A DNA stretch of 64,000 nucleotides from Thermoanaerobaculia bacterium (GTDB lineage Bacteria > Acidobacteriota > Thermoanaerobaculia > Multivoradales > SZUA-115): contig JAXLQX010000010.1 of assembly GCA_046331405.1 (NCBI GenBank), positions 50,551-114,550 on the forward strand, in the 5' to 3' direction. The notes under the pieces were generated by a model that worked only from the letters and a program-made list of their open reading frames with translations, searched no databases and had not been told where the DNA came from. Made by a program: the position numbers and the translations under genes. Below, in pieces: positions 3 through 64,000 of the stretch (positions are counted from its first letter, which is position 1; every line of letters starts with the position of its first letter).

Positions 3-1424
3 CTCGAAGAGCTGGCCTTCGCCCTTTCCCAGGGCGCTGGTGCCGGGGCCGTGCCGGACACTCTCCAGGGCCTGCTGGCGGCGCGCATCGACCGCCTGCC
101 CGCCGAGGAGAAGCGGCTGCTGCAGATCTCCTCGGTGTTCGGCCGGGAAGTCTCGGTGGAGCTGCTGCAGAGGATCTACCCGGAGCCCGACGCCCTGGCA
201 GCGAGGCTCGAGGAGCTGCAGCGCCGGGAGCTGCTGCTGGTCTCGCCGGAAGCCGGGCCGGGGATGCTGCGCTTCCACCATGCGCTGGTCAAGGAGGTGA
301 CTTACCAGAGCCTCTTGCCTAGCCGTCGCCGCGCCCTTCACGGCGCCCTGGCCGAGGCCCTCGAAAGCCTCTACGCCGGGCGCCTCGAGGAGGTCTACGA
401 CCGGCTGATCTACCACTTCCCCCGTGCGGGCGAGCCCGCCCGCACGGTGCACTATCTGCGCCTCTTCGCCGAGCGGGCCGCAGCCCAATACGCCCACCAG
501 GAGGCCGCCGCGGCCCTCGAGCAGGCACTCCGGGAGGCCGCTGCCCTGCCCCGGCAGCCAGGCGCCCGGCTGCGCACCGAGCTCCGCCTGGAGCTCGCGG
601 AGTCGCTTTTCCCGCTCACGCGCTTCCGCGACACCCTCGAGGTGCTCGAGGCCGGGCGGGCCGATCTCGAGGCCTGTGCCGAGCCGCGCTTGCATGCCCA
701 GCACCATTTCTGGCTGGCCCACACCTACACCTACCTGGGGGACTCCGGCGCCACCCGCGAGCATGCCCAGATTGCCGTCACGGCGGCCGAGGAGGCGCAC
801 GACGAGGTGACCGCCGGCAAGGCCCACTACGTGCTCGGCCGCGACGCTTTCTGGACCGGCCAGTACGCCCAGGGCCTCAAGCACAGCCTGGAGGCGGCGG
901 TGCTGCTCGAGAGGGGCGGCGAGGCCTGGTGGCAGGGCCAGGCCCATTGGGTGGCCGGCTTCAACCATTTCGGCCTGGGCGAGCTCGGCCAGGCCCGCGA
1001 GGCCTTTCTGCGCACCCAGCGCATCGGCGAGGCGCTCGACGACTACCGGCTGGACCCTTCCTGGTCCCTCGGCTTCCTGCTCACCAGCCAGGGCGACGTG
1101 GCAGCCGGCCTCGCCCAATGTCGCCGCGCCGTGGCCCGCGCCCAGGACTCGCTCAACCGCGCCGTGGCCCTGGGCTTTCTCGGCCACAGCCAGCTCGCCG
1201 CCGGCGAGCCGGCCCAGGCGGTGGTGAGCCTCAGCGAGGCCACGGCCACTCTCCGCCAGGCCGGCATGCAACAGCTGCTCGCCTGGCTGGGCGCCTACCT
1301 CGCCCAGGCCCACCGCGCCCTCGGCCAGGCCGAAGAAGCCGAAGAGATCGCCGAAGAAGCCCTCGAAGCCGCCCGCGGCGCCGGCTTCCCGTTCGGCGAG
1401 GAGCTGCTGCGAGGGGGGCGGTAG
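3..1424 (+). CDS. STAND/AAA-type regulator, C-terminal TPR-rich part (5' end lies outside the window)
   Basis: The frame is open from the window edge (LEELAFALSQGAG... precedes the first Met). It contains LLAARIDRLPAEEKRLLQISSVFGREV followed by long Ala/Leu/Glu helical repeats. This arrangement is found C-terminal to the NTPase domain in MalT/LuxR-type and cyclase-associated AAA-TPR proteins. Confidence 0.7.
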   Translation, partial: LEELAFALSQGAGAGAVPDTLQGLLAARIDRLPAEEKRLLQISSVFGREVSVELLQRIYPEPDALAARLEELQRRELLLVSPEAGPGMLRFHHALVKEVTYQSLLPSRRRALHGALAEALESLYAGRLEEVYDRLIYHFPRAGEPARTVHYLRLFAERAAAQYAHQEAAAALEQALREAAALPRQPGARLRTELRLELAESLFPLTRFRDTLEVLEAGRADLEACAEPRLHAQHHFWLAHTYTYLGDSGATREHAQIAVTAAEEAHDEVTAGKAHYVLGRDAFWTGQYAQGLKHSLEAAVLLERGGEAWWQGQAHWVAGFNHFGLGELGQAREAFLRTQRIGEALDDYRLDPSWSLGFLLTSQGDVAAGLAQCRRAVARAQDSLNRAVALGFLGHSQLAAGEPAQAVVSLSEATATLRQAGMQQLLAWLGAYLAQAHRALGQAEEAEEIAEEALEAARGAGFPFGEELLRGGR

Positions 1425-1676: not shown

Positions 1677-1752
1677 CCGCGAACTCGATCTGGTTTCAGT
1701 TGCTCTGAGATCTCGGGCTAACCGGAGCCGGTGGAGAAGAGAAGTCCCAGCC
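1567..1752 (+). pseudogene. truncated nucleotidyltransferase-like fragment
   Basis: A TTG-initiated frame reads IPSPIRKALSTIRQHRVAHLLMGGQACVLYGAAEFSRELDLV. This resembles the N-terminal GG...(S/T)xDLDL nucleotide-binding element of small MNT-type nucleotidyltransferases. Sensible sequence ends after about 45 residues, and the rest runs antisense into the permease 3' end. Confidence 0.25.
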
Positions 1753-4185
1753 TCACTCTCCCCGGATCGAGCGGATCGGGTCTGCCTCGGTGGCACGGCG
1801 GGCGGGGAGGAGGCAGGCGAGGGCCGCTACGGCGAGGAGGGCGAAGGTGGCGCCTACGAAGGCGAGCGGCTGCACGGTGGCCACCCCGGAGAGCTGGCTG
1901 GTCAAGGTCTTGGAGAACGCCGCCGCCAGCGCCCCGCCCACGAGAGCCCCCACCAGGCAAAGGCGTAGGCCCTGGCGGAGCACCAGCTGGAGGATCTCCC
2001 CCTTCTGGCTGCCCAGGGCCAGGCGGATGCCGAACTCCTGATGGCGAGTTGAGACAGTGTAGGTCAAGAGCCCGAATAGGCCAGATAGGGCTAAGCCCAC
2101 AGCCAGCGCAGCAGCGCCCGCAATGAGCCAGGCTATGAAGCGGAGGCGAGCGAGTGAGTCAGAGAGGATCTCGTCGCCGGTCCTCACCCGTGCGATCGGT
2201 AGCTGGGAGTCGAGGGCACGAACGAGCCTAGCTACTGCAGGGACGAGGTTGGAAGGAGGCAAGCTTGATCGGACGACCAGGCTGAACTCCAGAGAAGGCC
2301 ACTGCCTGTAAGGGAAATAGAGCTCAGGCTCGGGTGGTCTCTGAAGTCCGAGGTTGTGAACGTCGCCGACTACTCCAACCACGGTGGTCCAGCGTTCAAG
2401 AGAGCCTGGCAGTCCAAGAGCCAGATGGGTGCCAATCGGGTTGACATCGGGCCAATAGCGCCGGGCCGCGGCCTGGTTTACGACCGCGACAGGCGGCGAG
2501 CCAGACCAGTCCCCGCGCGCAAACGACCGGCCAGAGAGCAAGGCAACTCCCAGAGTGCGGAAGTAGTCATCACTGACGCGTCGGATCTCGGCGAAGGGAA
2601 GCTGGTCGCGCAGGCCCGGTGGCGGCGGATCGATTTGGAAGTTGCTGTTGTGCCCGGCTTCCAAGACCGGCAGCAGATCGATCAGGCCCACCTGTTTCAC
2701 TCCGGGCAGTTCTCGAACCGTATCGAGCAAGTCGCCAGAGAACTCCGCCATGCGGTCGGCCGAACTGTACGAATCTTCGGGTAGAACGAAGCGAAGGCTA
2801 TGCAGGTCCCGCGGTTCGAAACCGGGAGAAACTCGCCTCAGCGCCAGTAGATTGCCGACCAACAGGGTCGAACTGACGAGAACCGCCTGCGCAAGCCCCA
2901 CCTCTGCTATTGCCAGGGCGTTCCGCAGTCTTCTCCCGGTAGAATCGATTACTCCGTGAGCTCGCAACCCTCCCCCATCTTCAAGCCGTCTCGAGTAGAC
3001 CAAGGCCGGCGCTAGCCCACATAGTAGAGCCGCCGCTCCTGAGACGAAGGCAGAAGCAAGCGCCACCTGCCAGTTCAGGCTCGACTTGGCTAGTGCGGAG
3101 CCGCCCAGTGCGAGCAAAGGTCTGAGGAACCGAAGTGCCAGGGAGCTAGCGGTGAGTCCAATGAGAGTTGCAGGGATCGCAAGGACCAAACCGTCGCTGA
3201 GCAGCTCTGCAATCAGGCGGGTCCTAGATGCGCCCAGAGCGGCCCTCAGTTTGAGCTCCCGACTTCGCCCGGCGGCCCGCGAGAGCAAGAGGCTCGTTGT
3301 ATTGCCGCAGCTGATAGCGAGAACAAGTAGTGCTGCGAAGCTGCAGACTGCTAGTGGCAGTTGGACCTGGCCGTAGATCGCTTTTCGCAAGCCGAGAACT
3401 CGCACGCCACCCCATCGCATCGTATCTGGGTACTGGCGCACGATTTCGTCCGTGATCGCACTGAGCTCTTGTTGGGCAATGGAGGGCGTTGACCCAGGAG
3501 CTAGCCTTGCGATGACGGAGACCCAGTGATCTCCTCGCTGAACCCTGCGAGGTCCTTGGAGCACGAGAGGGCGCCAGGCGAGAGCGCTTGACGTGAGCGG
3601 AAGCTCGAACTCCGGCGGCATGACGCCGACGATCGTACAGGGACGTCCATCCAGTTGGAGCTTCCTGTCGAGCACGGCTGGGTCTGAAGCGAAGAGATCG
3701 CGCCAGAGCGAGTTGCTGATCAGGACCACGTTGTCTTGGCCGGGTAGCGCTTCGTCATCGTTGAACTGCCGCCCTAGCAGCGGCTGAGTACCCAGGACCC
3801 GTAGCAATGAAGGCGTAGCGAGAGCTCCTCGCAGGTAGCGAACGCCGTCCTCCGTGCCAATTCGGAAGTCGTGACTTGCGTATGCTCCGAACTCCGCAAG
3901 CGAGCGACTGGCGCGCTGCCAGTCTGCGAAGTTGGGAAGCGAAACAGCCCCAATGCCGGTACGGCCTTCGTAGGTGAAAGTCTCGAAAACCTGCACCAAT
4001 CGCCCGGGGTCGGCGTATGGAAGAGGAGCGACTAGGGCGAGCTGGAGCAGACTAAGCACCAAGCTCGCTCCGGCGACGCCCAGACCCAAGGAACCTCCGG
4101 CCGCAAGATCCATTCCAAAGCGAAGCCGGCGTAGTGTCGCTCTCAAGTGACCTAGGTACACCGATCTTTGCCTGCTCTCGTTCAT
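1753..4185 (-). CDS. ADOP-type duplicated FtsX/MacB-like ABC transporter permease (orphan, no adjacent ATPase)
   Basis: This is an 810-aa ORF with an ATG start. It has an N-terminal TM helix, a large extracytoplasmic domain and a 4-TM FtsX-like block, and this module occurs twice. The N-terminus (LGHLRATLRRLRFGMDLAAGGSLGL...) is typical of acidobacterial duplicated orphan permeases. Confidence 0.85.
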   Translation of the reverse strand: MNESRQRSVYLGHLRATLRRLRFGMDLAAGGSLGLGVAGASLVLSLLQLALVAPLPYADPGRLVQVFETFTYEGRTGIGAVSLPNFADWQRASRSLAEFGAYASHDFRIGTEDGVRYLRGALATPSLLRVLGTQPLLGRQFNDDEALPGQDNVVLISNSLWRDLFASDPAVLDRKLQLDGRPCTIVGVMPPEFELPLTSSALAWRPLVLQGPRRVQRGDHWVSVIARLAPGSTPSIAQQELSAITDEIVRQYPDTMRWGGVRVLGLRKAIYGQVQLPLAVCSFAALLVLAISCGNTTSLLLSRAAGRSRELKLRAALGASRTRLIAELLSDGLVLAIPATLIGLTASSLALRFLRPLLALGGSALAKSSLNWQVALASAFVSGAAALLCGLAPALVYSRRLEDGGGLRAHGVIDSTGRRLRNALAIAEVGLAQAVLVSSTLLVGNLLALRRVSPGFEPRDLHSLRFVLPEDSYSSADRMAEFSGDLLDTVRELPGVKQVGLIDLLPVLEAGHNSNFQIDPPPPGLRDQLPFAEIRRVSDDYFRTLGVALLSGRSFARGDWSGSPPVAVVNQAAARRYWPDVNPIGTHLALGLPGSLERWTTVVGVVGDVHNLGLQRPPEPELYFPYRQWPSLEFSLVVRSSLPPSNLVPAVARLVRALDSQLPIARVRTGDEILSDSLARLRFIAWLIAGAAALAVGLALSGLFGLLTYTVSTRHQEFGIRLALGSQKGEILQLVLRQGLRLCLVGALVGGALAAAFSKTLTSQLSGVATVQPLAFVGATFALLAVAALACLLPARRATEADPIRSIRGE

Positions 4186-4485
4186 TTCGCACGCACCGGA
4201 ACTACCGCTCCCAGCTCGAAGAGGTGACTGTGGTTCACGCGCTAGCCCACGAGTATAAAGCCTCGAGCCAAGGTCCGCAGTCCAACACGCCTTGGGTCAA
4301 TAAATTTCCGCTATAGGGAGTAGCGTTCAGGGCCGTGGTCAAGCAGGTACTCGAACTGTGGTCGCCCGTCTGGCTGCGCACCTCAGGGTTCGGGTTCCGG
4401 CTGGTGGGCGGAAACTGGTTAGCCCGCGTCAAGAAGGGCTGCGTGGAGGGGCAGATGAACGCAAGGGCGACCGATACAACACAGT

Positions 4486-4510
4486 CACCCCGAGACGCCC
4501 TCTCGGGGTG
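4486..4510 (-). terminator. hairpin terminator downstream of the precursor peptide gene
   Basis: There is a perfect 10-bp stem, CACCCCGAGA / TCTCGGGGTG, with a 5-nt loop. It sits about 55 nt after the precursor stop. On the minus strand it is followed by ACTGTGTTGTAT, which is only moderately T-rich. Confidence 0.5.
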
Positions 4511-4565
4511 ACTTCAGAAGAACTCGGCTCCAGTTGGAGAGTCAACGGCTCTAGAGCCACGTGAA

Positions 4566-4727
4566 CTACAGTGCAACTTCCTCAGCAGGAGACTTCGGTG
4601 CACAGGGGCAGCCGCAGTTGCAGCCGCTGTTGCCAGCCGCTCCGCCGGCGACATCGTCGAGATCGCCGTCGCTTACCTCGGTTACTTCCAGGCTTGCAAG
4701 CTCGTCTTTGGGATCCGTGTCGCCCAT
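4566..4727 (-). CDS. RiPP precursor peptide with a double-glycine leader and a Cys-rich core (53 aa, not in the ORF track)
   Basis: My translation is MGDTDPKDELASLEVTEVSDGDLDDVAGGAAGNSGCNCGCPCAPKSPAEEVAL. The ATG lies 5 nt after AAGGAGAA, and that RBS overlaps the TAA stop of the upstream radical SAM gene. The leader is acidic and ends in DDVAGG. The core contains CNCGCPC. A hairpin follows downstream. Confidence 0.75.
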   Translation of the reverse strand: MGDTDPKDELASLEVTEVSDGDLDDVAGGAAGNSGCNCGCPCAPKSPAEEVAL

Positions 4728-4738
4728 AGCACTTCTCC

Positions 4739-6286
4739 TTACGCTCTTGTACCCGTAGGTACGGTGGTGGAGTAACCGGTCAGATCGGCAATCGGCCTGA
4801 CCGAATCGTCAGCTTCGGAAGCCGAGGTCTCGGCAACAGGGAGAGCGAGCTTCCGCCCTGCATCGCGCTGAGAAGCGACCTGGCGCATTTCTGACTTGAA
4901 GTTGGCCCGAGTCCAAGTGCAGGGGGACTTGTCCGTCTCGAAGCGCTCAAGCGGACAGGACATCCCCAGGCAGGTGGGCAAAATCACGCATTTTTGGCAC
5001 TGTTGGTCACTCTCAAAGGCTGGTTCAGTCCAGAGTGCAAAGCGATCTAGGTCGAGCTTGAGCTCACCGTCCTCGTTCAGGGAGCCGACGACGTTCCGAG
5101 GATTCTTGTCGAGCTCGACTGTACACTTCATCACCTTGCCTGTGGCTCCAATGATGAAGTTGTAGGGTCTGGCTGCATAACAGACGTCAGCACCGAACCG
5201 CTGCAGTTCAGTCAGTCCGTCCGTAACGCTGAGGCCGCGCAATTGCGCTTCCTTGGTGAGTTCCTTTCTCAACTCGATGCCGTCGCGGTAGCCGCAGACT
5301 TGAAGATTCGCATCGTTGTCGCCGCCCCAGCGACCTACAGGCCTGAAGCGCAGCTTGTACCGTGGATCACTACTCAGCTCAGACTGAACAAGATCCAGAA
5401 ACGAACCGAGATGGGGATAGCTCTGCGGATTGAAATTCACGCGCAAGTCGACGGTGAAGTCCTCCTGGCGCTGGTGAAGCGAGACCAAGTTGGTCAGGAT
5501 GGTGTCGAAAGTCCCGCTGCCATCACGGGCAGGTCTGCTCTGGTTGTGGAACTCCGCTGGACCGTCGAGCGTGATCTGGTAGTGGAGGATTCTCCACGAC
5601 AGGAGCCGCTCAGCTACTTCCGGGGACAGCAGGTAGCCGTTTGTAGTCATCTTGCTGTTGAAGGCGAGGCCATTCTCACTTGCCAGATCGTGGAAGAATG
5701 GGGCGAGGTCGTCGATCGCCTCGATGCCGTAGAGAGGTTCGCCTCCGAACCAGTTGACAGCCAAGCTGGTTAGGGCGGGAAGGCGCTTCAGGGTTAGGTT
5801 CTTGATGCCGTTTCGGACCCACCGCTTCATGGTGCCGCGAGCGAAGTCCTCATAGCAGTAGGTACAGCGGAAGTTACAGTCTTCGGAAGAAAGGAGGATA
5901 AGTTGAAACGTATCGGTGCGAAATTGTTGCTGGCCGAAGCGAATCCGAAGTCGGCGATACTCATCGGCTCCCTGAGGGACCACGTAACCCTTGGTCGAAA
6001 GGTAATGCACCACTCCTGAGTCTCTTGCCTCGAAACCCTCGCGCACGAGCAGTCGCTCGACCGTTTCCTTGTCCTTGCGTGAGAAGATGCACATGGCACC
6101 AGAAAAGGTGTTCCAGAGTACGAGTCTGCCGTCCTCGGTCGTGGCGCGCACGGTGTAGCGGGAGGGCAGCCACCTCTGGGTGCGACCTCGAGCAGCGTCG
6201 ATCGCCGGCTCCGCATGTGCATTGGAGGCGAGTTCGTAGGGGGACTCTCTGAGGATGTCGAATTTTGTGGAAAGCCCTAAAGACAT
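4739..6286 (-). CDS. radical SAM/SPASM-domain peptide maturase with an N-terminal RRE-like extension
   Basis: It carries the CNFRCTYC (CxxxCxxC) cluster motif and a GGEP motif. The C-terminal region is Cys-rich (CYAARP...KCTVE...CQKCVILPTCLGMSCP...C), as in SPASM/twitch auxiliary-cluster domains. A leader-binding-like segment of about 110 aa precedes the core. GAGGAG lies 6 nt before the ATG. Confidence 0.9.
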   Translation of the reverse strand: MSLGLSTKFDILRESPYELASNAHAEPAIDAARGRTQRWLPSRYTVRATTEDGRLVLWNTFSGAMCIFSRKDKETVERLLVREGFEARDSGVVHYLSTKGYVVPQGADEYRRLRIRFGQQQFRTDTFQLILLSSEDCNFRCTYCYEDFARGTMKRWVRNGIKNLTLKRLPALTSLAVNWFGGEPLYGIEAIDDLAPFFHDLASENGLAFNSKMTTNGYLLSPEVAERLLSWRILHYQITLDGPAEFHNQSRPARDGSGTFDTILTNLVSLHQRQEDFTVDLRVNFNPQSYPHLGSFLDLVQSELSSDPRYKLRFRPVGRWGGDNDANLQVCGYRDGIELRKELTKEAQLRGLSVTDGLTELQRFGADVCYAARPYNFIIGATGKVMKCTVELDKNPRNVVGSLNEDGELKLDLDRFALWTEPAFESDQQCQKCVILPTCLGMSCPLERFETDKSPCTWTRANFKSEMRQVASQRDAGRKLALPVAETSASEADDSVRPIADLTGYSTTVPTGTRA

Positions 6287-6443
6287 GAGGAGCTCCTCGC
6301 TTCATGGACGACTTCTAAAGGGCAGTGAGTTGCCTTCGCAGTGGTCTGGCTGGCGTTGGGAAGTTTTGCAGACAATTGGCAGAGGCTGACATACGGGTGC
6401 GTGCCCGATGCACAGAACAGGGGGCTTGGGCAGGAAGTGCGGC

Positions 6444-7688
6444 TCATGCGGAAAGCGCCTGCCTACGGAGCGGGGAGTCGGAGAGGAGCGGAAGGAAGAC
6501 TTCGGAGCGCGCGAGACTTCTTACGTGATCAACAAGTCGGTCTCTGTTTTCGGCGACGGCTTGTCCGTGGAGCTCGCACGTAAGGCGCTCGAGCAGAGCA
6601 TCTGTATCGAGGCCTTCGAGAAGGCCACGGAAGAGTACGCGGTTGGTCTGGTTGAACTCGAAACCGATGATCTCCTTGCCCGACATGCGCTCCACTGCCT
6701 CTTCGATCGTCGTCAGTGGATCAACATCGGGGTGCTGTTTCCGCACCACCTCCAGGATCGCGGTGCGGTCCGGGAAGAGCATGAGCAAGGCCAGGAGATA
6801 GCGAGCTTGAGGGTCGGAGACCTTGCCCCGCAGGGAGGTGATGATGCGAGTTCGGCGCTCCCAATCGCAGGCTTCGCGGAAGATCTGGATGGGTTCACCA
6901 TAGAGTCGCTCAGCGTGCTCGTAGAACTGAGCGAGCAGGGCAGGATCCGCCTTCCGGCGCGTCAGTAGCGAGAACATGGCCAAGAGGGTTTCGAGGTCTC
7001 CACTTTCGACCAGCTGGTGAACGCGATCCTGGAGTCCCCCCAGGTGGCCGCGGAGCATTGCTTCCAAGAAGAGCAAGCGGCGGGCTCGGAGAGGGTCGTA
7101 GGCCTCGTGATCGACTGCCAGCCCAGGCAGAAGGTACTGGTACTGCGGTAAGTGATCACGATCCACGTATGTCCGAACCACGACTGTTACGGATGGAACC
7201 TCGAGGTGGAAGAGCTGATGGATGAGCCGTGAGCCGGAGTAGATCTCTCGAGTGTCTCCAGGGCCGAGGACCTCGGTCGAGGCTCTTTCGAGGGCGCCCA
7301 GGATGAGTCGCGAGTTAACCTTCTGGTGCGTGTGGAAGTGCCAATGGCTGTGTACACTGCCTCCAGCAAGCACCGAGAAGGCTCCGGTAAAGGAGTGCTC
7401 GTGAATCTCGGTGGTAGCTGAGTGCCAGAAGAGTACTTCGATGAAGAATCGCGGTGCCTGGAAGACCATGACTGGCGGTTCGCCGAAGAGGCTTCGGTTG
7501 GCGGGCTGATTGAGTCCCTGTCCCCGAGCGAAAGTCCAAGAGACGATCTCTTCGACCTTGATGTGCTGGGCAGGTGGCAGCTTCTCTAGCTCTGCCACCG
7601 CAAGGCGCGGAAAGACTTCTTCGTCATAGCTGTGATGCAGCCACTGCAGCTCGATCCGGGCCCCAAGATCCTGGAAGTAGGGGATCAT
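6444..7688 (-). CDS. cupin-like protein (3-His, thiol-dioxygenase-like motif) with a C-terminal helical domain of about 220 aa
   Basis: It starts at internal ATG 7688, with GGAGGCGAGG 4 nt upstream. TTEIHEHSFTGAF is followed 59 residues later by GSRLIHQLFH. This resembles the xIH(D/E)H...H metal site of cysteine/thiol dioxygenase cupins. The C-terminal half is helical and carries no motif I recognise. Confidence 0.55.
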   Translation of the reverse strand: MIPYFQDLGARIELQWLHHSYDEEVFPRLAVAELEKLPPAQHIKVEEIVSWTFARGQGLNQPANRSLFGEPPVMVFQAPRFFIEVLFWHSATTEIHEHSFTGAFSVLAGGSVHSHWHFHTHQKVNSRLILGALERASTEVLGPGDTREIYSGSRLIHQLFHLEVPSVTVVVRTYVDRDHLPQYQYLLPGLAVDHEAYDPLRARRLLFLEAMLRGHLGGLQDRVHQLVESGDLETLLAMFSLLTRRKADPALLAQFYEHAERLYGEPIQIFREACDWERRTRIITSLRGKVSDPQARYLLALLMLFPDRTAILEVVRKQHPDVDPLTTIEEAVERMSGKEIIGFEFNQTNRVLFRGLLEGLDTDALLERLTCELHGQAVAENRDRLVDHVRSLARSEVFLPLLSDSPLRRQALSA

Positions 7689-7819
7689 TGGACCTCGCCT
7701 CCGCTCCCGGCCCGAAGGGCGGAGCCGGGCCTGTCGAAAAGTAGCGACTGCCGGTAACACCCTTGACTGGAGACTTGCCGAGTCTTCCCGCTAGGTCTAC
7801 ACAAAGCTCGCGCAGGCAC
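7685..7819 (-). CDS. candidate 44-codon small ORF translationally coupled to the cupin gene
   Basis: GTG 7819 lies 7 nt after AAGGAGGA. The product is MPARALCRPSGKTRQVSSQGCYRQSLLFDRPGSALRAGSGGEVQ. Its TGA stop overlaps the cupin ATG (ATGA). GC3 is about 64% by hand count. Support is the strong RBS plus the coupling only. Confidence 0.25.
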   Translation of the reverse strand: MPARALCRPSGKTRQVSSQGCYRQSLLFDRPGSALRAGSGGEVQ

Positions 7820-8141
7820 AGGAGCTTCCTCCTTGCTGAGGAGAGACCTGAGGTCTGAAAAAAGCCAAGTGTAGTTTGAGAGAAGTGCAGGAATGTGTCA
7901 AGAGGAAGAGGAAAGATAAGTAGAGCGTAAAGAGTCGAAAATTAAGATATATAGAAGTATGTTTCGAGAGTCCTCTGGTTGACGTGGCCGCGATGGCAGC
8001 TCTGTGACCGTTAAGCTGATGTGCCTATCGGTGCACCTGCCACGGAGCAGGCTTTGTGCAGAAGGCGTTGTTCAAGCGGTTCCCAACTTCGTGGCGAGAG
8101 GGCGACGCCAGGGCAAGCCCGAAGTGAAGGCTCGAGGGCGT

Positions 8142-9209
8142 TCATTGCGACGCAGCTCGCTGGCTGGTGGCTGCCGCCGGAACAGGACTCGGCAGACCCC
8201 TGAAGGCCAAGTAGGCTTTGGCCTGTCCCCGCCCCACCTTCACATGGCTGAGCGCCCTCACCAGATGGCTGCTCTGGCCGATGGCTTCTCTTGGCCAGCG
8301 TTCGGGGGCTTCGAGGAGCGTTTCCGTTCCTGGCCAGTGGAGGAGGGCTTGGGCTTTTTCGTCGCAAGCCAGGCCTTGTTGAACGAGGTGGCGAAGGAGG
8401 CTCGACCACCGGGGTTCCCGGGGTGGTTGGTGGCGGAAGGAGGCTTCGAGGCCGGGGTGGGGGAGGATCTCGTCCCCATTCTCGCCGCCCAAGTCGAAGG
8501 AGAGGTGGCAGCGGTCGGCCCGGGGGAGGAGAGGGAGGAGCTCCTGCAGGCTCCGGACGGCGGCTTCGGGGCCGATTCGGCGGAGGGTTGAGAGAAGGAG
8601 GGCCGAGTCCTGGCTGGCGAGCTCGAGGCGGAGGGGTTGGCCGGGCCGGGAGGCGAGGTGGAAGAGGTAGAAGAGCTGCACGCCGGGAGGGAGGGCTTCG
8701 AGGCAGCGCTCGAGGAGCCGAGCTTCCCGGCCGCGCGTTCGGCGGCCGCGAAGGGCCGGCACCAGGACCTCGACGAGCCAAGAGGCTGGCACCGGGTCGG
8801 CGAGGCGGGCGCAGAGGATCGGCGGCGGTGCCGGTGTGGCGCCGGGAGGCAAGTCCAGCTCCAGCCAGAGGGCTGAAACCGGGTGGGGAAAGCCGAGCTC
8901 CTGCCAGCCTCCCCGGAGCAGGCGCTCGAGGGACGGAGAGCCGCTTGAGAGCTGGACTTGCGCGGCCTCTCCCGGATGCGCGAGGCGGGCGGCGAGGTCC
9001 ACCTGGGGTGCGCCAGTGGCGAGCCGGAGCTCGAGAATGCCCAGGCAGCCGGGTGGGAAGCTCTCGGCCGCAAGAGCCGCCTGCTCGAAAGCGGCCTTGC
9101 TCACCAGGGTGGGCGGCAGGTGGGGGCGGCAGCAGCGGAGCCAACTTGCCAGGGAGAAGGGCGCGGTGTCGGGCTCCGGGCGGGCGGGAGCGAGCGGCTT
9201 AGCCTCCAC
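8142..9209 (-). CDS. hypothetical protein, candidate tailoring enzyme for the Nif11-type peptide (start uncertain: GTG 9209 or ATG 9272)
   Basis: This is the only frame in 8.0-9.3 kb with balanced amino-acid composition and strongly GC-biased third positions. Its 5' end overlaps the 3' end of the upstream precursor gene. It shows five hairpin-like strand pairs alternating with helical segments (see findings). I recognise no catalytic motif. Confidence 0.65.
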   Translation of the reverse strand: MEAKPLAPARPEPDTAPFSLASWLRCCRPHLPPTLVSKAAFEQAALAAESFPPGCLGILELRLATGAPQVDLAARLAHPGEAAQVQLSSGSPSLERLLRGGWQELGFPHPVSALWLELDLPPGATPAPPPILCARLADPVPASWLVEVLVPALRGRRTRGREARLLERCLEALPPGVQLFYLFHLASRPGQPLRLELASQDSALLLSTLRRIGPEAAVRSLQELLPLLPRADRCHLSFDLGGENGDEILPHPGLEASFRHQPPREPRWSSLLRHLVQQGLACDEKAQALLHWPGTETLLEAPERWPREAIGQSSHLVRALSHVKVGRGQAKAYLAFRGLPSPVPAAATSQRAASQ

Positions 9210-9453
9210 CCCCGGTTCCCGGCGGAGGCGGATCACCGGTCCAGCCTCCGGCAACGTCTTCCAGTTCCTCATCCGACAGCTCGGTGGTGCTTTCCGCCAG
9301 GCCGCGGGCTTCGTCGAGGGTCAGGTGGAAGCCCAGGGACGCGGCGTGGGCCCTCCAGGCTTCTGCGTCGAGGCCGAGGGCCGAGAGCTGTTCGAGGAGC
9401 CGAGGGTCGGCGCGTAGGGCCGCGGAGAATCGGTCGAGGTCTTGAATGGACAT
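9199..9453 (-). CDS. Nif11-like leader peptide family RiPP precursor (84 aa)
   Basis: It starts at an internal ATG with GAGGAGGA upstream. The product is MSIQDLDRFSAALRADPRLLEQLSALGLDAEAWRAHAASLGFHLTLDEARGLAESTTELSDEELEDVAGG followed by the core WTGDPPPPGTGGGG. The layout matches Nif11-type leaders, which end in LSDEELExVAGG. Confidence 0.8.
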   Translation of the reverse strand: MSIQDLDRFSAALRADPRLLEQLSALGLDAEAWRAHAASLGFHLTLDEARGLAESTTELSDEELEDVAGGWTGDPPPPGTGGGG

Positions 9454-9558
9454 CTTCGAGTCCTCCTCTCTCGTTGATTCCGGAGAAGCTAGTATGCCAG
9501 AGAATCGCCGCTTTGACTCTCTCGGTTCGGCTTGACCCCTGGTTCGGGGGAGGGCATC

Positions 9559-10707
9559 ATGCGTGGGCTCGAATCCGAAGCCCGAGGTGCCCGGTTGAAC
9601 CGTGATGGCAGGCTGATCCCGACGATCCACCCGGACATTGCCCAGGCCGAGACGCTGCCGGGCTGGTTCTATGGCGATACCTGCGTGTACCAGCAGGCGA
9701 AGGAGCGCGTCTTCGCCCGCTCCTGGCAGTGGCTGGGAGACCTCGACCGCTTGAAGGTGCCCGGCCAGGTGTGGCCGATGGTGCTACTGGAAGGTTGCCT
9801 GAACGAGCCGCTGCTCTTGACCCGGGACACCCGAGACGAGATCCACCTGCTGTCGAACGCCTGCACCCACCGAGGCAACCTGGTGTGCGAGGGCGAGGGT
9901 GTGGAGCAGGTGCTGCGCTGCCGCTACCATGGGCGGCGCTTCGGGTTGGACGGCCGGTTTCTCTCCATGCCGGAGTTCGAGGGTGTGGCGGGCTTCCCGT
10001 CGCCGGTGGACGACCTTCCCGCCGTGCCCTGGCGGCGCTGGCGGAAGTTCCTCTTCGCTGCCGTGGAGCCGGCCTTCCCGTTCGAGGAGTGGCTCGCCGA
10101 GGTGGAGGCCCGGGTGGGCTGGCTGCCGATCGAGCAGGCCACGTTCGATGCCTCGCGCTCCCGGGACTACCTGGTCCAGGCCAACTGGGCGCTCTACTGC
10201 GACAACTACCTCGAAGGCTTCCACATCCCCTACGTCCACGTGGGGCTCGCTGGCGCCCTGGACTACGGTAGCTACACCACCGAGCTCTATCGCTTCACGA
10301 ACCTGCAGCTGGGGGTGGCGAGCGGTGGAGAGGATGTGTTCTCGCCGCCGCCCGGCCACCCGGATCACGGCAAGGCGATCGCCGGCTACTACTACTGGCT
10401 CTTCCCCAACCTGATGCTCAACTTCTATCCCTGGGGCATCTCGGTGAACGTGGTGAAGCCGCTCGGGCCGGAGCGCACCAAGGTCTCCTTCTTGACCTAT
10501 GTGTGGGACCCGGAGCGCCTCGACCGCGGAGCCGGCTCCTCTCTCGATCGCGTGGAGCGCGAGGACGAGGCGATCGTTGAGGCCACGCAAACGGGGGTGC
10601 GTTCGCATTTCTACGGCCGGGGTCGGTACTCGGTGAAGCGCGAGGAGGGGGTGCACCACTTCCACCGCCTGCTGGTGGCGGCCCTGGGCTCGGGCGGGAC
10701 CGGATGA
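9559..10707 (+). CDS. Rieske [2Fe-2S] non-heme iron oxygenase, alpha-subunit type
   Basis: The Rieske motif is CTHRGNLV...CRYHGRRF. The mononuclear iron motif is NWALYCDNYLEGFHIPYVH. It starts at ATG 9559, after GGGGGAGGG. The track's 9532 start is a TTG extension. Confidence 0.85.
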   Translation: MRGLESEARGARLNRDGRLIPTIHPDIAQAETLPGWFYGDTCVYQQAKERVFARSWQWLGDLDRLKVPGQVWPMVLLEGCLNEPLLLTRDTRDEIHLLSNACTHRGNLVCEGEGVEQVLRCRYHGRRFGLDGRFLSMPEFEGVAGFPSPVDDLPAVPWRRWRKFLFAAVEPAFPFEEWLAEVEARVGWLPIEQATFDASRSRDYLVQANWALYCDNYLEGFHIPYVHVGLAGALDYGSYTTELYRFTNLQLGVASGGEDVFSPPPGHPDHGKAIAGYYYWLFPNLMLNFYPWGISVNVVKPLGPERTKVSFLTYVWDPERLDRGAGSSLDRVEREDEAIVEATQTGVRSHFYGRGRYSVKREEGVHHFHRLLVAALGSGGTG

Positions 10708-26250: not shown

Positions 26251-27354
26251 TCAGCTCTGGGGCGCGACGTCCAGCCGGTGGCCCTTGCGGCCGCCTCGAG
26301 CGTGAGGTGCCTCGGCCAGGCTGCCCGCCACCAACAGTCGGGCCATGCTCACCGTGCGCTCGGCGAGGGCCCGGGCGGCGGCATGGAGCTCCTCGCTCGC
26401 GGCGACGTAGCGCACGTTGTTCTCCATGTCCTCGGCGCTCCAGCCACGGGAGTGGGCGATGTAGGGGAAGGGTGGAAACTGGCAGCCGATCTCGGCGAAG
26501 AAGCCCAGCAGCTGCCCGGCCACGGCCTGAACGTTGTCCTGGCCGCCGGTGATGATGAAAGCAGCGGCCTTGTTGACGATCAGGTGCCGGCGGGCGATGG
26601 TCTCCTGATTCTGGATGCAATTCATCCGCTCGACCATCTTGTAGTAGAGGCTCGAGGCCGCGCCCCAGCGAATCGGCGTGGCCACCAGCACGGCGTCCGC
26701 CCAATGCACCAGGGCCTCGTAGACTTGCTCCATCTGGTCCCGGCGATCCATCTGGGTGATCGAGCAGGGCCAGGTGCAGGCTCGAGCTCCCTTCGAGTAG
26801 AAGCCCTCGCAGGCTCGGAAGGAGAGCTCCCGCAGATCGATTCGTTTCGTCTCGCAGCCGAGGCTCGCAGCGTGCTCGAGGGCTGAGGCCAAGAGAGCAT
26901 CCGAGGTGGAATAGCGCGGCTCGCCCGGGGTCATCACCGTGGTGGAGAGGCCCAGCACCCGGATCGGCCCGGCCTCGCGGACCACCGGGCGCGCGAGCGG
27001 ATGCGGAGCGTGGGGCTTGCGGCTCCTGGGCGTGGGATTGGCGAGGTCCACGAGCACCCGCCCGCCCTCCACCTTCAGCGGGTAGGTCGGCACGCGGTCC
27101 TCCTCGAAGCCGGGCTCGCCCATTCCCGTGGCGCGATGGAACTTCCAGTAGTGCCAGGGGCAAACCACGTAGTCGCCCTCGAGGCGGCCGTCGCCCAGCG
27201 GGCCGCCGGCGTGGTTGCAGCTGCCGGAGAGGGCTGTGAGCTCACCGTTGCGGTAGCACAGGGCGAGTCTCACCCGCCGCACGGTCATCGACTGCAATTC
27301 GCGCCTGGAAAGCTCTTCGAACGACCCGAGATCGATCCATTCCGGTTCAGCCAT
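26251..27354 (-). CDS. Rieske [2Fe-2S] domain fused to a flavodoxin-like/NAD(P)H-dependent FMN reductase domain
   Basis: The N-terminal Rieske motifs are CNHAGGPL...CPWHYWKF. The C-terminal part reads IRVLGLSTT...ADAVLVATPIRWGAASSLYKMVERM..., like iron-sulfur flavoprotein/FMN-reductase folds. It starts at internal ATG 27354. Confidence 0.7.
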   Translation of the reverse strand: MAEPEWIDLGSFEELSRRELQSMTVRRVRLALCYRNGELTALSGSCNHAGGPLGDGRLEGDYVVCPWHYWKFHRATGMGEPGFEEDRVPTYPLKVEGGRVLVDLANPTPRSRKPHAPHPLARPVVREAGPIRVLGLSTTVMTPGEPRYSTSDALLASALEHAASLGCETKRIDLRELSFRACEGFYSKGARACTWPCSITQMDRRDQMEQVYEALVHWADAVLVATPIRWGAASSLYYKMVERMNCIQNQETIARRHLIVNKAAAFIITGGQDNVQAVAGQLLGFFAEIGCQFPPFPYIAHSRGWSAEDMENNVRYVAASEELHAAARALAERTVSMARLLVAGSLAEAPHARGGRKGHRLDVAPQS

Positions 27355-27512
27355 GGTGGCGCTATCCTCTGCCAAACCTCGATGGGCGACAAGGGCTGAA
27401 ACCCGGACGCCGTCGTTGCATCCAAGGCTGGGACGGGACGCTGGCTCGGGATCTGCACCTGCAGTGGGCTTTCCGTAGATCAACCCTAGACGGATGGAGG
27501 CTCGAGAACAGG

Positions 27513-54002: not shown

Positions 54003-62957
<8,955 letters not shown>

Positions 62958-62988
62958 GGCGGGCTCCTGGCAGGCAGAGAGGTTTCGC

Positions 62989-64000
62989 TCAGGCTTCCTC
63001 GGCGGCGAGCAGCTCGGCGAGCAGGGCTTCGACCGCGCCATCGGAGAGCCCGTCGAGGTCGGGGCGGAGATCCGCGGCAGCGACGGCGGGGCTCGGCGTC
63101 GCCTCGGGCGCGGCCGTTCCCGCGCCCCGGACAGCGAGTTCGGCCGCCAGCTCGGCCAGCACGGAACGCTCGAAGACCGCGGCGAGCGGCAGCTCCACCC
63201 CGAAGCCGAGGCGCAGGCGGGACACCAGCTGGGTGGCGAGCAGCGAGTGGCCGCCGAGGGCGAAGAAGTCGTCCTGCCGGCCGACGTCGCGCACTCCCAG
63301 AAGCTCGCTCCAGAGGCCGGCCAGGGCCTCTTCGAGCGGGCCCCGGGGCGGCTCGAGCTGCTCGCCCGGCCCGGTTGTGGGCTCTGGATGGGGCAGCGCT
63401 GTGAGGTCCACCTTGCCGGTCGCCCCGAGCGGCAGCCTCTCGAGCACCACCACGAAGCTCGGCACCAGGTGCTGGGGCAGCCGCGCCCCGAGTTCGGCCT
63501 TGAGGCCCTCGGAGGACAGCCCCTCCTGGCCACAGACGTAGGCGGCCAGGCGCTTGCCGGCGAGCGGATCGTCGAGCATCTTGACCGCCGCGGCGCTCAC
63601 TCCGGGCAGGCTTTGGAGCTGGCTTTCGATCTCGCCGGGCTCGATCCTGAAGCCGCGGATCTTCACCTGGCGGTCCAGCCGGCCGAGGTACTCCACCACC
63701 CCGTCCGGGCGCCAGCGCACGCGGTCCCCGGTCGCGTAGAGCCGCTCGCCGGGAGTGGCGGCATGGGGGTCCGGCCGGAACTTCTCGGCGGTGGCCGCGG
63801 GGCGGCCCAGGTAGCCCCGGGCGAGGCCGGCACCGCCCAGGAAGAGCTCACCGGGCACGCCGATCGGCTGCAGGGCGAACCGGGAGCCGAGCACCAGGCC
63901 CCGAGTGGCCCCGATCGGCCGCCCGATCGGCAGCGGGTCTCGCACCTCGGCCGGGGAGTCCATGGCGAACGTATGCGAGAAGGTGGTGCTCTCGGTGGGG
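62989..64000 (-). CDS. non-ribosomal peptide synthetase, 3' part (A-T plus docking-like tail; continues beyond the window)
   Basis: The frame is open to the window edge (…PTESTTFSHTFAMDSP). Motifs present are GELFLGGAGLARGYLG, QVKIRGFRIEPGEIE, LPLGATGKVD and FFALGGHSLLATQL. The acidic C-terminal tail is DGAVEALLAELLAAEEA. Confidence 0.9.
   Translation of the reverse strand, partial: PTESTTFSHTFAMDSPAEVRDPLPIGRPIGATRGLVLGSRFALQPIGVPGELFLGGAGLARGYLGRPAATAEKFRPDPHAATPGERLYATGDRVRWRPDGVVEYLGRLDRQVKIRGFRIEPGEIESQLQSLPGVSAAAVKMLDDPLAGKRLAAYVCGQEGLSSEGLKAELGARLPQHLVPSFVVVLERLPLGATGKVDLTALPHPEPTTGPGEQLEPPRGPLEEALAGLWSELLGVRDVGRQDDFFALGGHSLLATQLVSRLRLGFGVELPLAAVFERSVLAELAAELAVRGAGTAAPEATPSPAVAAADLRPDLDGLSDGAVEALLAELLAAEEA

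Follow-up and report, generated by a model that had tools for sequence, protein, structure and literature searches.

A predicted MppC-like prenyltransferase gene overlapping a Nif11-type precursor with a short tryptophan core in a Thermoanaerobaculia genome

Which enzyme, if any, acts on a ribosomally made peptide whose 14-residue core carries a single tryptophan followed by a proline- and glycine-rich tail? The question is raised by a 64,000-nucleotide stretch of a Thermoanaerobaculia bacterium genome (Acidobacteriota; GenBank assembly GCA_046331405.1, contig JAXLQX010000010.1, positions 50,551 to 114,550), referred to here as the window, in which the gene for such a peptide lies on the minus strand. 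An earlier note on this DNA had recognised the gene as the precursor of a ribosomally synthesised peptide that is modified after translation (RiPP) and had stated that none of the usual maturases is adjacent to it. The latter statement does not hold, as the 3' end of the precursor gene is overlapped by ORF-B, an open reading frame (ORF) whose product has a predicted prenyltransferase fold, and a radical S-adenosylmethionine (SAM)/SPASM gene lies 3 kb downstream on the same strand. The precursor and ORF-B most likely make a short RiPP with a prenylated tryptophan. This reading is directly supported by the family to which the leader belongs, the overlap of the two genes, the prenyltransferase-barrel (PT-barrel) fold of ORF-B, its homology to an orthologue of the peptide prenyltransferase MppC, its invariant residues and the single Trp of the core. 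The features concerned are as follows, in window coordinates.

9453..9199, minus strand: precursor ORF of 84 amino acids (aa), translated as MSIQDLDRFSAALRADPRLLEQLSALGLDAEAWRAHAASLGFHLTLDEARGLAESTTELSDEELEDVAGGWTGDPPPPGTGGGG and followed by the stop codon.
9461..9468, minus strand: ribosome-binding site GAGGAGGA (tcctcctc on the plus strand), 7 nt 5' of the ATG, read directly from the sequence.
9244..9453, minus strand: leader peptide, residues 1-70, made up of a Nif11 domain (residues 1-48), then an acidic linker in which LSDEEL forms the L(X)4L motif, and finally a VAGG double-glycine end.
9202..9243, minus strand: core peptide WTGDPPPPGTGGGG, 14 residues by translation, in which Trp71 (core position +1) is predicted to be modified; the stop codon occupies 9199-9201.
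8142..9209, minus strand: ORF-B, putative MppC-like peptide prenyltransferase of the alpha-beta-beta-alpha (ABBA, PT-barrel) type, assigned by AlphaFold2 model, Foldseek and hhalign.

The precursor and its conserved tryptophan

The precursor ORF is nested within a mechanically called 143-aa ORF with a GTG start (9199..9630, minus strand), and both its translation and the ribosome-binding site ahead of its ATG bear out the earlier choice of the shorter frame. When compared with profile hidden Markov models (HMMs), its leader exceeded both curated cut-offs: residues 1-70 matched TIGR03798 (leader_Nif11, NCBIfam) at 48.8 bits (cut-off 32.3; E = 6.4e-13) and residues 1-48 matched PF07862 (Nif11, Pfam) at 36.5 bits (cut-off 23.8), in agreement with the Nif11-type leader proposed in the earlier note. 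The leader ends in LSDEELEDVAGG, the double-glycine end on which the assignment to RiPP precursors had been based and which falls within the span of the TIGR03798 match, and the Gly-Gly site is preceded by an acidic L(X)4L segment (...TELSDEELEDVAGG, after which the core begins with W). The 84-aa ORF is thus genuine, and its sequence is that of a Nif11-type RiPP precursor. Translation of 9202..9243 likewise agrees with the remark that the core contains no Cys, Ser or Lys.

Related loci were drawn from genomes (32 loci, three from protein look-ups and 29 from a pattern scan, with one contig represented twice) and from metagenomes (42 loci with an ORF-B homologue), giving 74 loci together, and every named genome among them is an Acidobacteriota or Thermoanaerobaculia metagenome-assembled genome. 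In 28 of the 32 genome loci (one of these ORFs being frameshifted) and in 39 of the 42 metagenome loci, no more than a few tens of bases lie between the end of an ORF with a double-glycine (GG) leader and the ORF-B homologue, so that a precursor stands directly upstream of an ORF-B homologue in 67 of the 74. Conservation in related genomes, which the earlier note had made a condition of its reading, is thus found, and it goes well beyond what chance would give. The precursors that were compared also number 67, with the window's own counted and the duplicate contig omitted, and all 67 keep both the double-glycine end and the L(X)4L motif.

These precursors carry 49 distinct cores of 5-26 residues, each with exactly one Trp, located at core position 1-5, and none with Tyr, Phe or His. 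The rest of the core is mainly Gly (25%), Pro (23%), Thr (13%) and Asp. The commonest subtype is short, (D/E)0-3-W-P-P-x (for example AWPPP and DTAWPPV), and the shortest cores have five residues (AWPPP); a further subtype has Gly/Thr-rich tails. Cores resembling that of the window, with the pattern W-x-x-D-PPPP and a Gly-rich end, recur at L028, L066, L008, L054 and L073, and the subtype is represented by WTGDPPPPTS, WTDPPPPGTGG, AWGDPPPPGSGP and AWNDPPPPEEPG. The earlier note had singled out both the Trp at core position +1 and an overall W..PPPP..GGGG pattern. The invariance of a single Trp across all 49 cores upholds the first, whereas the second stands as a recurring subtype but not as the mark of the family: the Pro4 and Gly4 runs appear to be recurring, non-essential decoration, with Trp as the probable conserved target.

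Cores of the form WCGNExTTG, each with a LanM gene directly upstream, occur at L019, L026, L044, L059, L060 and L067, and these loci encode mpp-like lanthipeptides. The window's precursor does not have the marks of a prenylated class II lanthipeptide of the mpp type, as there is no LanM gene in its cluster and no Cys in its core, which places it in a linear, lanthionine-independent branch.

A predicted prenyltransferase of the MppC-like family

The ORF that contains ORF-B spans 9272..8142 on the minus strand and so overlaps the 3' end of the precursor gene. There are two options for its start: a GTG at 9209, which gives an 11-nt overlap with the last three precursor codons, and a GTG at 9236, which is consistent with the 364-aa version of the protein in the database (P0001). 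Its start overlaps the precursor's stop, and ORF-B is translationally linked to the precursor. Sequence searches with ORF-B found no significant match in Pfam, NCBIfam (E <= 0.01) or the sequences of the PDB, and ORF-B and 25 aligned homologues gave no Pfam match even at E <= 10. The approximately 30 clusters of homologues are all labelled hypothetical and all come from Thermoanaerobaculia or other Acidobacteriota. Because neither Pfam nor NCBIfam recognises the protein, it was hidden from a first reading made without tools, and its identity came solely from fold comparison and from direct comparison with the MppC orthologue.

The alignment of ORF-B repeats a series of strand motifs (WLELD, RLE, HLSFD, GIEGS, SHVKV and AKAYL), and the AlphaFold2 model (pLDDT 89, pTM 0.87) has five alpha-alpha-beta-beta repeats. 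The best 50 matches of this model in a Foldseek search of the PDB were all ABBA/PT-barrel prenyltransferases, including NphB/Orf2, DMATS1, PagF, PirF, LimF, KgpF, PatF, AmbP1/3, EpzP and DciF, with E-values of 1e-7 to 1e-3, probabilities of 0.99-1.00 and sequence identities of 8-13%.

A HMMER scan with the ORF-B profile, covering 1.84 billion representative proteins, returned 3,983 representatives at E <= 1e-3, of which 1,473 reached E <= 1e-30; the ORF-B/MppC-like family therefore comprises about 4,000 representatives at 50% identity and is without a Pfam model. Some members are two-domain fusions, with squalene-hopene-cyclase-like domains (P0132, P0152, P0180) or with 2-oxoglutarate (2OG)-Fe(II) oxygenase or methyltransferase domains (P0122, P0182; P0142), and the cyclase fusions provide an independent pointer to isoprenoid chemistry. 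In an alignment of 118 single-domain members, which included the MppC orthologue, the residues E60, L63, D71, E117, D119, R194, G253, G294, K324, K331 and Y333 are invariant. All of them are kept in ORF-B and most sit on its successive predicted strands, where they would suit the lining of a diphosphate-binding barrel and may be presumed to form the active site.

A characterised relative is MppC of Moorena producens, a soluble ABBA prenyltransferase that geranylates the indole C5 of one Trp in MppE, a lanthipeptide precursor with a Nif11 leader and the heptapeptide core ACWRWSG, in a reaction that is strictly leader-dependent and needs both a structured nucleus and the L(X)4L motif of the leader (Wakeel, McShan and Agarwal, JACS 2025; PMC12715784). 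A search with the published MppE sequence found an 87% identical orthologue on an M. producens contig (locus L033), where a LanM gene and the MppE orthologue are accompanied, directly downstream of the latter, by a 375-aa gene without a Pfam match. This gene is the sole candidate for the MppC orthologue, because the remaining unannotated genes of the locus encode a pentapeptide-repeat protein and a helical protein. ORF-B aligns with its product (L033:10745-11872) at 26% identity by BLASTP (E = 2e-19), and the ORF-B family profile matches it end to end over 315 columns by hhalign (99.9%; E = 9.4e-34). No confident mapping of MppC residues Trp336 and Phe340 onto the numbering of the orthologue was obtained. 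Homology, the PT-barrel fold, the invariant residues and an adjacent Nif11 precursor with a Trp core were all found, and ORF-B is accordingly a member of the MppC-like family, the comparison being with the orthologue rather than with the published protein. In the supplement to the MppC study, Nif11 ORFs are found in the company of 87 MppC-like sequences and LanM genes in that of 76, Cyanobacteriota, Myxococcota and Pseudomonadota dominate with 64% of the nodes, and the similarity networks of MppC and PagF do not overlap (PMC12715784). Pairs without LanM may occur within that published set; none is characterised, and the Acidobacteriota fall outside the three named phyla.

In the pathway suggested by these observations, ORF-B would dock on the Nif11 leader and transfer an isoprenyl cation from a prenyl diphosphate (dimethylallyl diphosphate, geranyl diphosphate or a longer donor) to the indole of Trp71. 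An ATP-binding cassette (ABC) exporter with a C39 peptidase domain, encoded outside the window, would then cleave after Gly70, and the secreted product would be a lipidated peptide consisting of the prenylated Trp followed by TGDPPPPGTGGGG, in which the Pro/Gly-rich tail would be a variable and probably unmodified appendage.

Several points weigh against such a pathway. The TM-scores of the Foldseek matches are modest (0.34-0.50), and activity, donor and regiochemistry are carried over from one characterised enzyme at about 26% identity. The surroundings of the cluster showed no gene for a prenyl-diphosphate synthase, and a scan of 30 long ORFs of the window, which did not extend to a 3176-aa ORF and several shorter ones, turned up neither a C39 peptidase nor an exporter. 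In addition, MppC preferred a lanthionine-cyclised core (PMC12715784), whereas there is no Cys and no LanM here, so that substrate handling must differ.

The alternative that survives best is that ORF-B has the PT-barrel but does not prenylate Trp, being silent in the manner of PatF or acting as a leader-binding chaperone, an immunity protein or the agent of some other core chemistry. PatF, an inactive PT-barrel protein, is itself among the fold matches, and both the low identity to the MppC orthologue and the modest TM-scores would be compatible with such a role. However, ORF-B keeps every one of the charged and Tyr residues that are invariant in the family, positioned on successive predicted strands, other members of the family are fused to terpene-cyclase-like domains, and a single Trp in every core is the imprint expected of an indole-directed enzyme. 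We therefore consider a role other than Trp prenylation improbable.

The neighbouring radical SAM module and signalling genes

Prenylation by ORF-B must also be weighed against the other genes around the precursor. ORF-B is separated by a gap of approximately 450 nt from the next gene downstream, with which a run of four same-strand genes begins, and beyond them lies the end of a gene on the opposite strand.

6444..7688, minus strand: ORF-C, 414 aa, thiol-dioxygenase-like cupin with a helical domain, predicted from a structure model and Foldseek.
4739..6286, minus strand: radical SAM/SPASM peptide maturase (TIGR04463 at 195.9 bits against an equivalog cut-off of 525; PF04055).
4566..4727, minus strand: second precursor, from the ORF list, with a GG leader MGDTDPKDELASLEVTEVSDGDLDDVAGG and a Cys-rich core AAGNSGCNCGCPCAPKSPAEEVAL, directly after the radical SAM gene.
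4483..4513, minus strand: hairpin resembling a terminator (stem of 13 bp), located after the second precursor, from a consensus scan.
1753..4185, minus strand: ADOP-family duplicated permease (TIGR03434 at 718.7 bits against a cut-off of 622.3), the last gene of a block of lower GC content.
3..1424, plus strand: C-terminal tetratricopeptide-repeat (TPR) part, 474 residues, of a cyclase-AAA_16-TPR (STAND) gene that runs off the left edge of the window (TPR_12 and TPR_MalT matches).

The radical SAM/SPASM enzyme could in principle be the true maturase, cross-linking or otherwise modifying the Trp as in streptide or darobactin, with ORF-B as an accessory. Its gene lies on the same strand and matches RiPP-maturase families, albeit below every equivalog cut-off, and homologues occur within 5 kb of ORF-B in several other loci. 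Such co-occurrence is nonetheless poor, with close homologues (50-53% identity) near ORF-B in three of the 32 genome loci and a radical SAM match of any kind in nine of the 72 loci covered by that tally. The radical SAM gene also has its own Cys-rich GG-leader precursor directly downstream, which is likely to be its substrate: a homologous peptide adjoins the radical SAM gene in L034 and L020, and in L034 the pairing recurs without a Trp peptide. Further, the Trp cores offer no second conserved residue for cross-linking, and the radical SAM block is set apart from ORF-B by the 450-nt gap and by its lower GC content. The enzyme was rejected as maturase of the Trp peptide on account of its own Cys-rich substrate, its rare association with ORF-B and its different GC content, and the chance that it acts in this capacity is very slight.

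ORF-C gave no Pfam or NCBIfam match and is a conserved Thermoanaerobaculia protein with 174 close homologues at 52-61% identity. The PDB matches of its N-terminal cupin are all thiol dioxygenases (cysteine, 3-mercaptopropionate and cysteamine dioxygenases), its C-terminal half is helical, and its HEH and H...H motifs are invariant; on the evidence of this model and of the genes that accompany it, ORF-C is a candidate peptide-cysteine dioxygenase of a RiPP pathway. No ORF-C homologue lies within 8 kb of the other ORF-B loci, and in L034 a homologue has as its neighbours a radical SAM gene and a homologous GG peptide of 53 aa that contains Cys. ORF-C, which is absent from the surroundings of ORF-B in those loci and occurs together with the radical SAM gene and the Cys-rich peptide, was thus rejected as a tailoring enzyme of the Trp peptide. 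Since ORF-C is missing from ORF-B loci and radical SAM homologues are found in only three of the 32 genome loci, 4566..7688 is an independent RiPP module.

The block from about 1750 to 8100 has a GC content of 55-63%, against 66-74% in its flanks, and a GC content at third codon positions (GC3) of 0.68-0.70 against 0.8-0.92. It separates ORF-B from the cyclase-STAND gene, and in 39 of the 50 other loci whose sequence reaches at least 1.5 kb downstream of ORF-B a convergent cyclase-STAND gene of approximately 1,100 codons is located within 1 kb; the block therefore looks like an insertion or rearrangement between the two. At two metagenome loci both modules are interleaved: a GG-leader peptide rich in Cys (core AEQAINNQCTVNTGNCVAGCACGSAQ) is encoded just upstream of the Trp precursor (L052:~4200-4345 and L075:~570-719), and about 700 nt upstream of ORF-B there is a radical SAM homologue. 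A further apparent RiPP pair, in which a GG-leader peptide of 52-72 aa precedes a JmjC_2 protein of 414 aa, is present at L034:2160-3711, L001:15293-16788 and L002:15320-16833. The L034 peptide, the sole one translated, has a core with spaced Cys repeats (...GGTCQSGAAGCSTSGGVCESSGGNCETSGGTC...), and Lant_dehydr_C genes are found near these pairs in the same Thermoanaerobaculia islands.

The TPR fragment at the left edge of the window clusters with cyclase-STAND proteins of about 1100 aa, in which a double zinc ribbon, an adenylate/guanylate cyclase domain, an AAA_16 (STAND) ATPase and MalT-like TPRs are combined. At L026:2893-10668, L028:9117-16962 and L029:8945-16885, loci that include the cores closest to the window's, the cyclase-STAND gene is co-directional and nearly contiguous with a TIGR03797 (NHLP ABC2) exporter gene that passes its cut-off. 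A 179-aa cyclic-nucleotide (cNMP)-binding protein is encoded between the two in L026, and a further ABC transporter is encoded upstream in L029. This gene order suggests a tie between cyclic-nucleotide control and the export of Nif11/NHLP peptides. The genes that come next on the contig common to L032 and L035 encode an ABC transporter with a C39 peptidase, a HlyD-like protein and an outer-membrane factor. Exporters adjoin the cyclase-STAND gene in homologous loci, and the window breaks off within that gene; by synteny, the peptidase that removes the leader and the exporter of the window peptide are therefore probably encoded just beyond the window's edge.

Many loci also have, upstream, genes for an RsbRD_N histidine kinase and for an SRPBCC protein, neither of which is found in the window. 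The kinase is soluble, with no predicted transmembrane segment; for this reason, and because the window lacks it, a circuit of the ComQXPA kind working through it was set aside as unsupported. That the small protein is instead a stand-alone Nif11-domain regulator, acting with the cyclase-STAND protein or the histidine kinase and never cleaved or exported, would fit these conserved soluble neighbours and the lack of a peptidase among the window ORFs scanned, but is hardly credible given that all homologues conserve the double-glycine end and the L(X)4L motif, that Nif11/NHLP exporters, including a C39-peptidase ABC transporter, flank homologous loci, that L012, L029 and L030 have short leaders without a Nif11 domain and yet keep GG followed by a Trp core, and that three genome and six metagenome loci have LanM and Cys/Thr-containing cores alongside, as in classical RiPP logic.

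A prenylated, exported peptide could still take part in signalling. The precursor and prenyltransferase genes are nearly always followed by a convergent cyclase-STAND gene, which in the loci nearest to this core type closes an operon that includes the genes for a cNMP-binding protein and the Nif11/NHLP ABC exporters. The prenyl-Trp peptide may accordingly act not as an antibiotic but as a signal made by the cell itself, with the cytoplasmic TPR-STAND cyclase sensing the peptide or its precursor load and cAMP or cGMP gating export or expression. The evidence for a circuit of signalling or export control is gene order, and we regard it as a speculative and rather unlikely reading. If true, it would represent a prenyl-peptide to cyclic-nucleotide circuit in the Acidobacteriota, functionally similar to ComX and assembled from unrelated parts.

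Elsewhere in the window, two Rieske genes were noted: a ring-hydroxylating oxygenase alpha subunit divergent from the precursor (9532-10707, plus strand) and a Rieske-flavin mononucleotide (FMN) reductase fusion (26251-27483, minus strand). Neither has a counterpart in related ORF-B loci, and a role in the peptide pathway is therefore unlikely. The 3176-aa ORF (54003-63533, minus strand) has a GC3 of 0.91 and is probably a real gene.

Comparison with known systems

A literature search found no paper joining Thermoanaerobaculia with RiPPs or Nif11, and a wider search combining Acidobacteria, tryptophan, Nif11 and RiPP found no such system described. To our knowledge, almost no natural products of Thermoanaerobaculia have been characterised, and leader-dependent Trp prenylation of the MppC type was first demonstrated biochemically in 2024-2025, and only for lanthionine-cyclised peptides of cyanobacteria and actinobacteria. 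What is new here is a predicted lanthionine-independent variant of leader-guided Trp prenylation, and not a new principle. The locus belongs to a clade of minimal linear Trp peptides in an under-explored phylum; the clade is large and unannotated, comprises no fewer than 49 distinct cores and has been met only in Thermoanaerobaculia. As the ORF-B family is unrecognised by Pfam, NCBIfam and genome annotation, standard RiPP mining misses such clusters. If the prediction is correct, the pair would provide a minimal, genetically encoded tag for leader-guided Trp lipidation, consisting of a leader and a W, as well as a way to approach what prenylated peptides do in soil Acidobacteriota.

Prochlorosin-type Nif11 lanthipeptides and the srp proteusins with brominated Trp share with the window peptide a long structured leader (Nif11 or NHLP), a GG end and ABC exporters of the NHLP type, and the srp pathway also modifies a Trp close to the end of the leader. 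However, the maturases in those systems are LanM or a flavin-dependent brominase, in contrast to the prenyltransferase predicted here.

ComX and ComQ of Bacillus provide a parallel in product and gene order: a short ribosomal peptide with a single isoprenylated Trp, adjacent precursor and prenyltransferase genes, and a histidine kinase next door. The parts differ, as ComQ has an all-helical fold like that of isoprenyl-diphosphate synthases (PMC13290415), in contrast to the PT barrel of ORF-B, ComP is a membrane kinase whereas the kinase of ORF-B loci is soluble, and the leaders are of different types.

The cyanobactin F family (PagF, KgpF, LimF, PirF and PatF) shares the PT-barrel fold, and all five are among the Foldseek matches of ORF-B. 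These enzymes act on peptide side chains, KgpF prenylating Trp, and they do so independently of a leader, on excised and usually macrocyclic cores. ORF-B resembles them by fold only, as it matches no curated model (Pfam at E <= 10, NCBIfam at E <= 0.01).

NctPC has been described as an enzyme that attaches geranylgeranyl to Trp in a ribosomal peptide and in which an ABBA-fold domain is joined to a class II terpene cyclase (Hubrich et al., Chem 2024, as summarised in the review PMC13290415). By that description it resembles ORF-B as an ABBA-fold peptide Trp prenyltransferase with low similarity to the cyanobactin enzymes, and the ORF-B family likewise includes cyclase fusions. ORF-B itself differs in that it consists of one domain and has neither a cyclase domain nor a cyclase gene in its vicinity.

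The closest parallel is the MppE/MppC pair. In both systems the leader is of the Nif11 type, carries an L(X)4L motif, ends in GG and precedes a very short Trp-containing core, and the prenyltransferase gene lies directly downstream of the precursor. The window pair differs in having no LanM and no Cys, so that its core is linear and rich in Pro and Gly, in sharing only about 26% identity at the level of the enzyme, in its host, a member of the Thermoanaerobaculia within the Acidobacteriota rather than a cyanobacterium, and in its linkage to a convergent cyclase-STAND gene.

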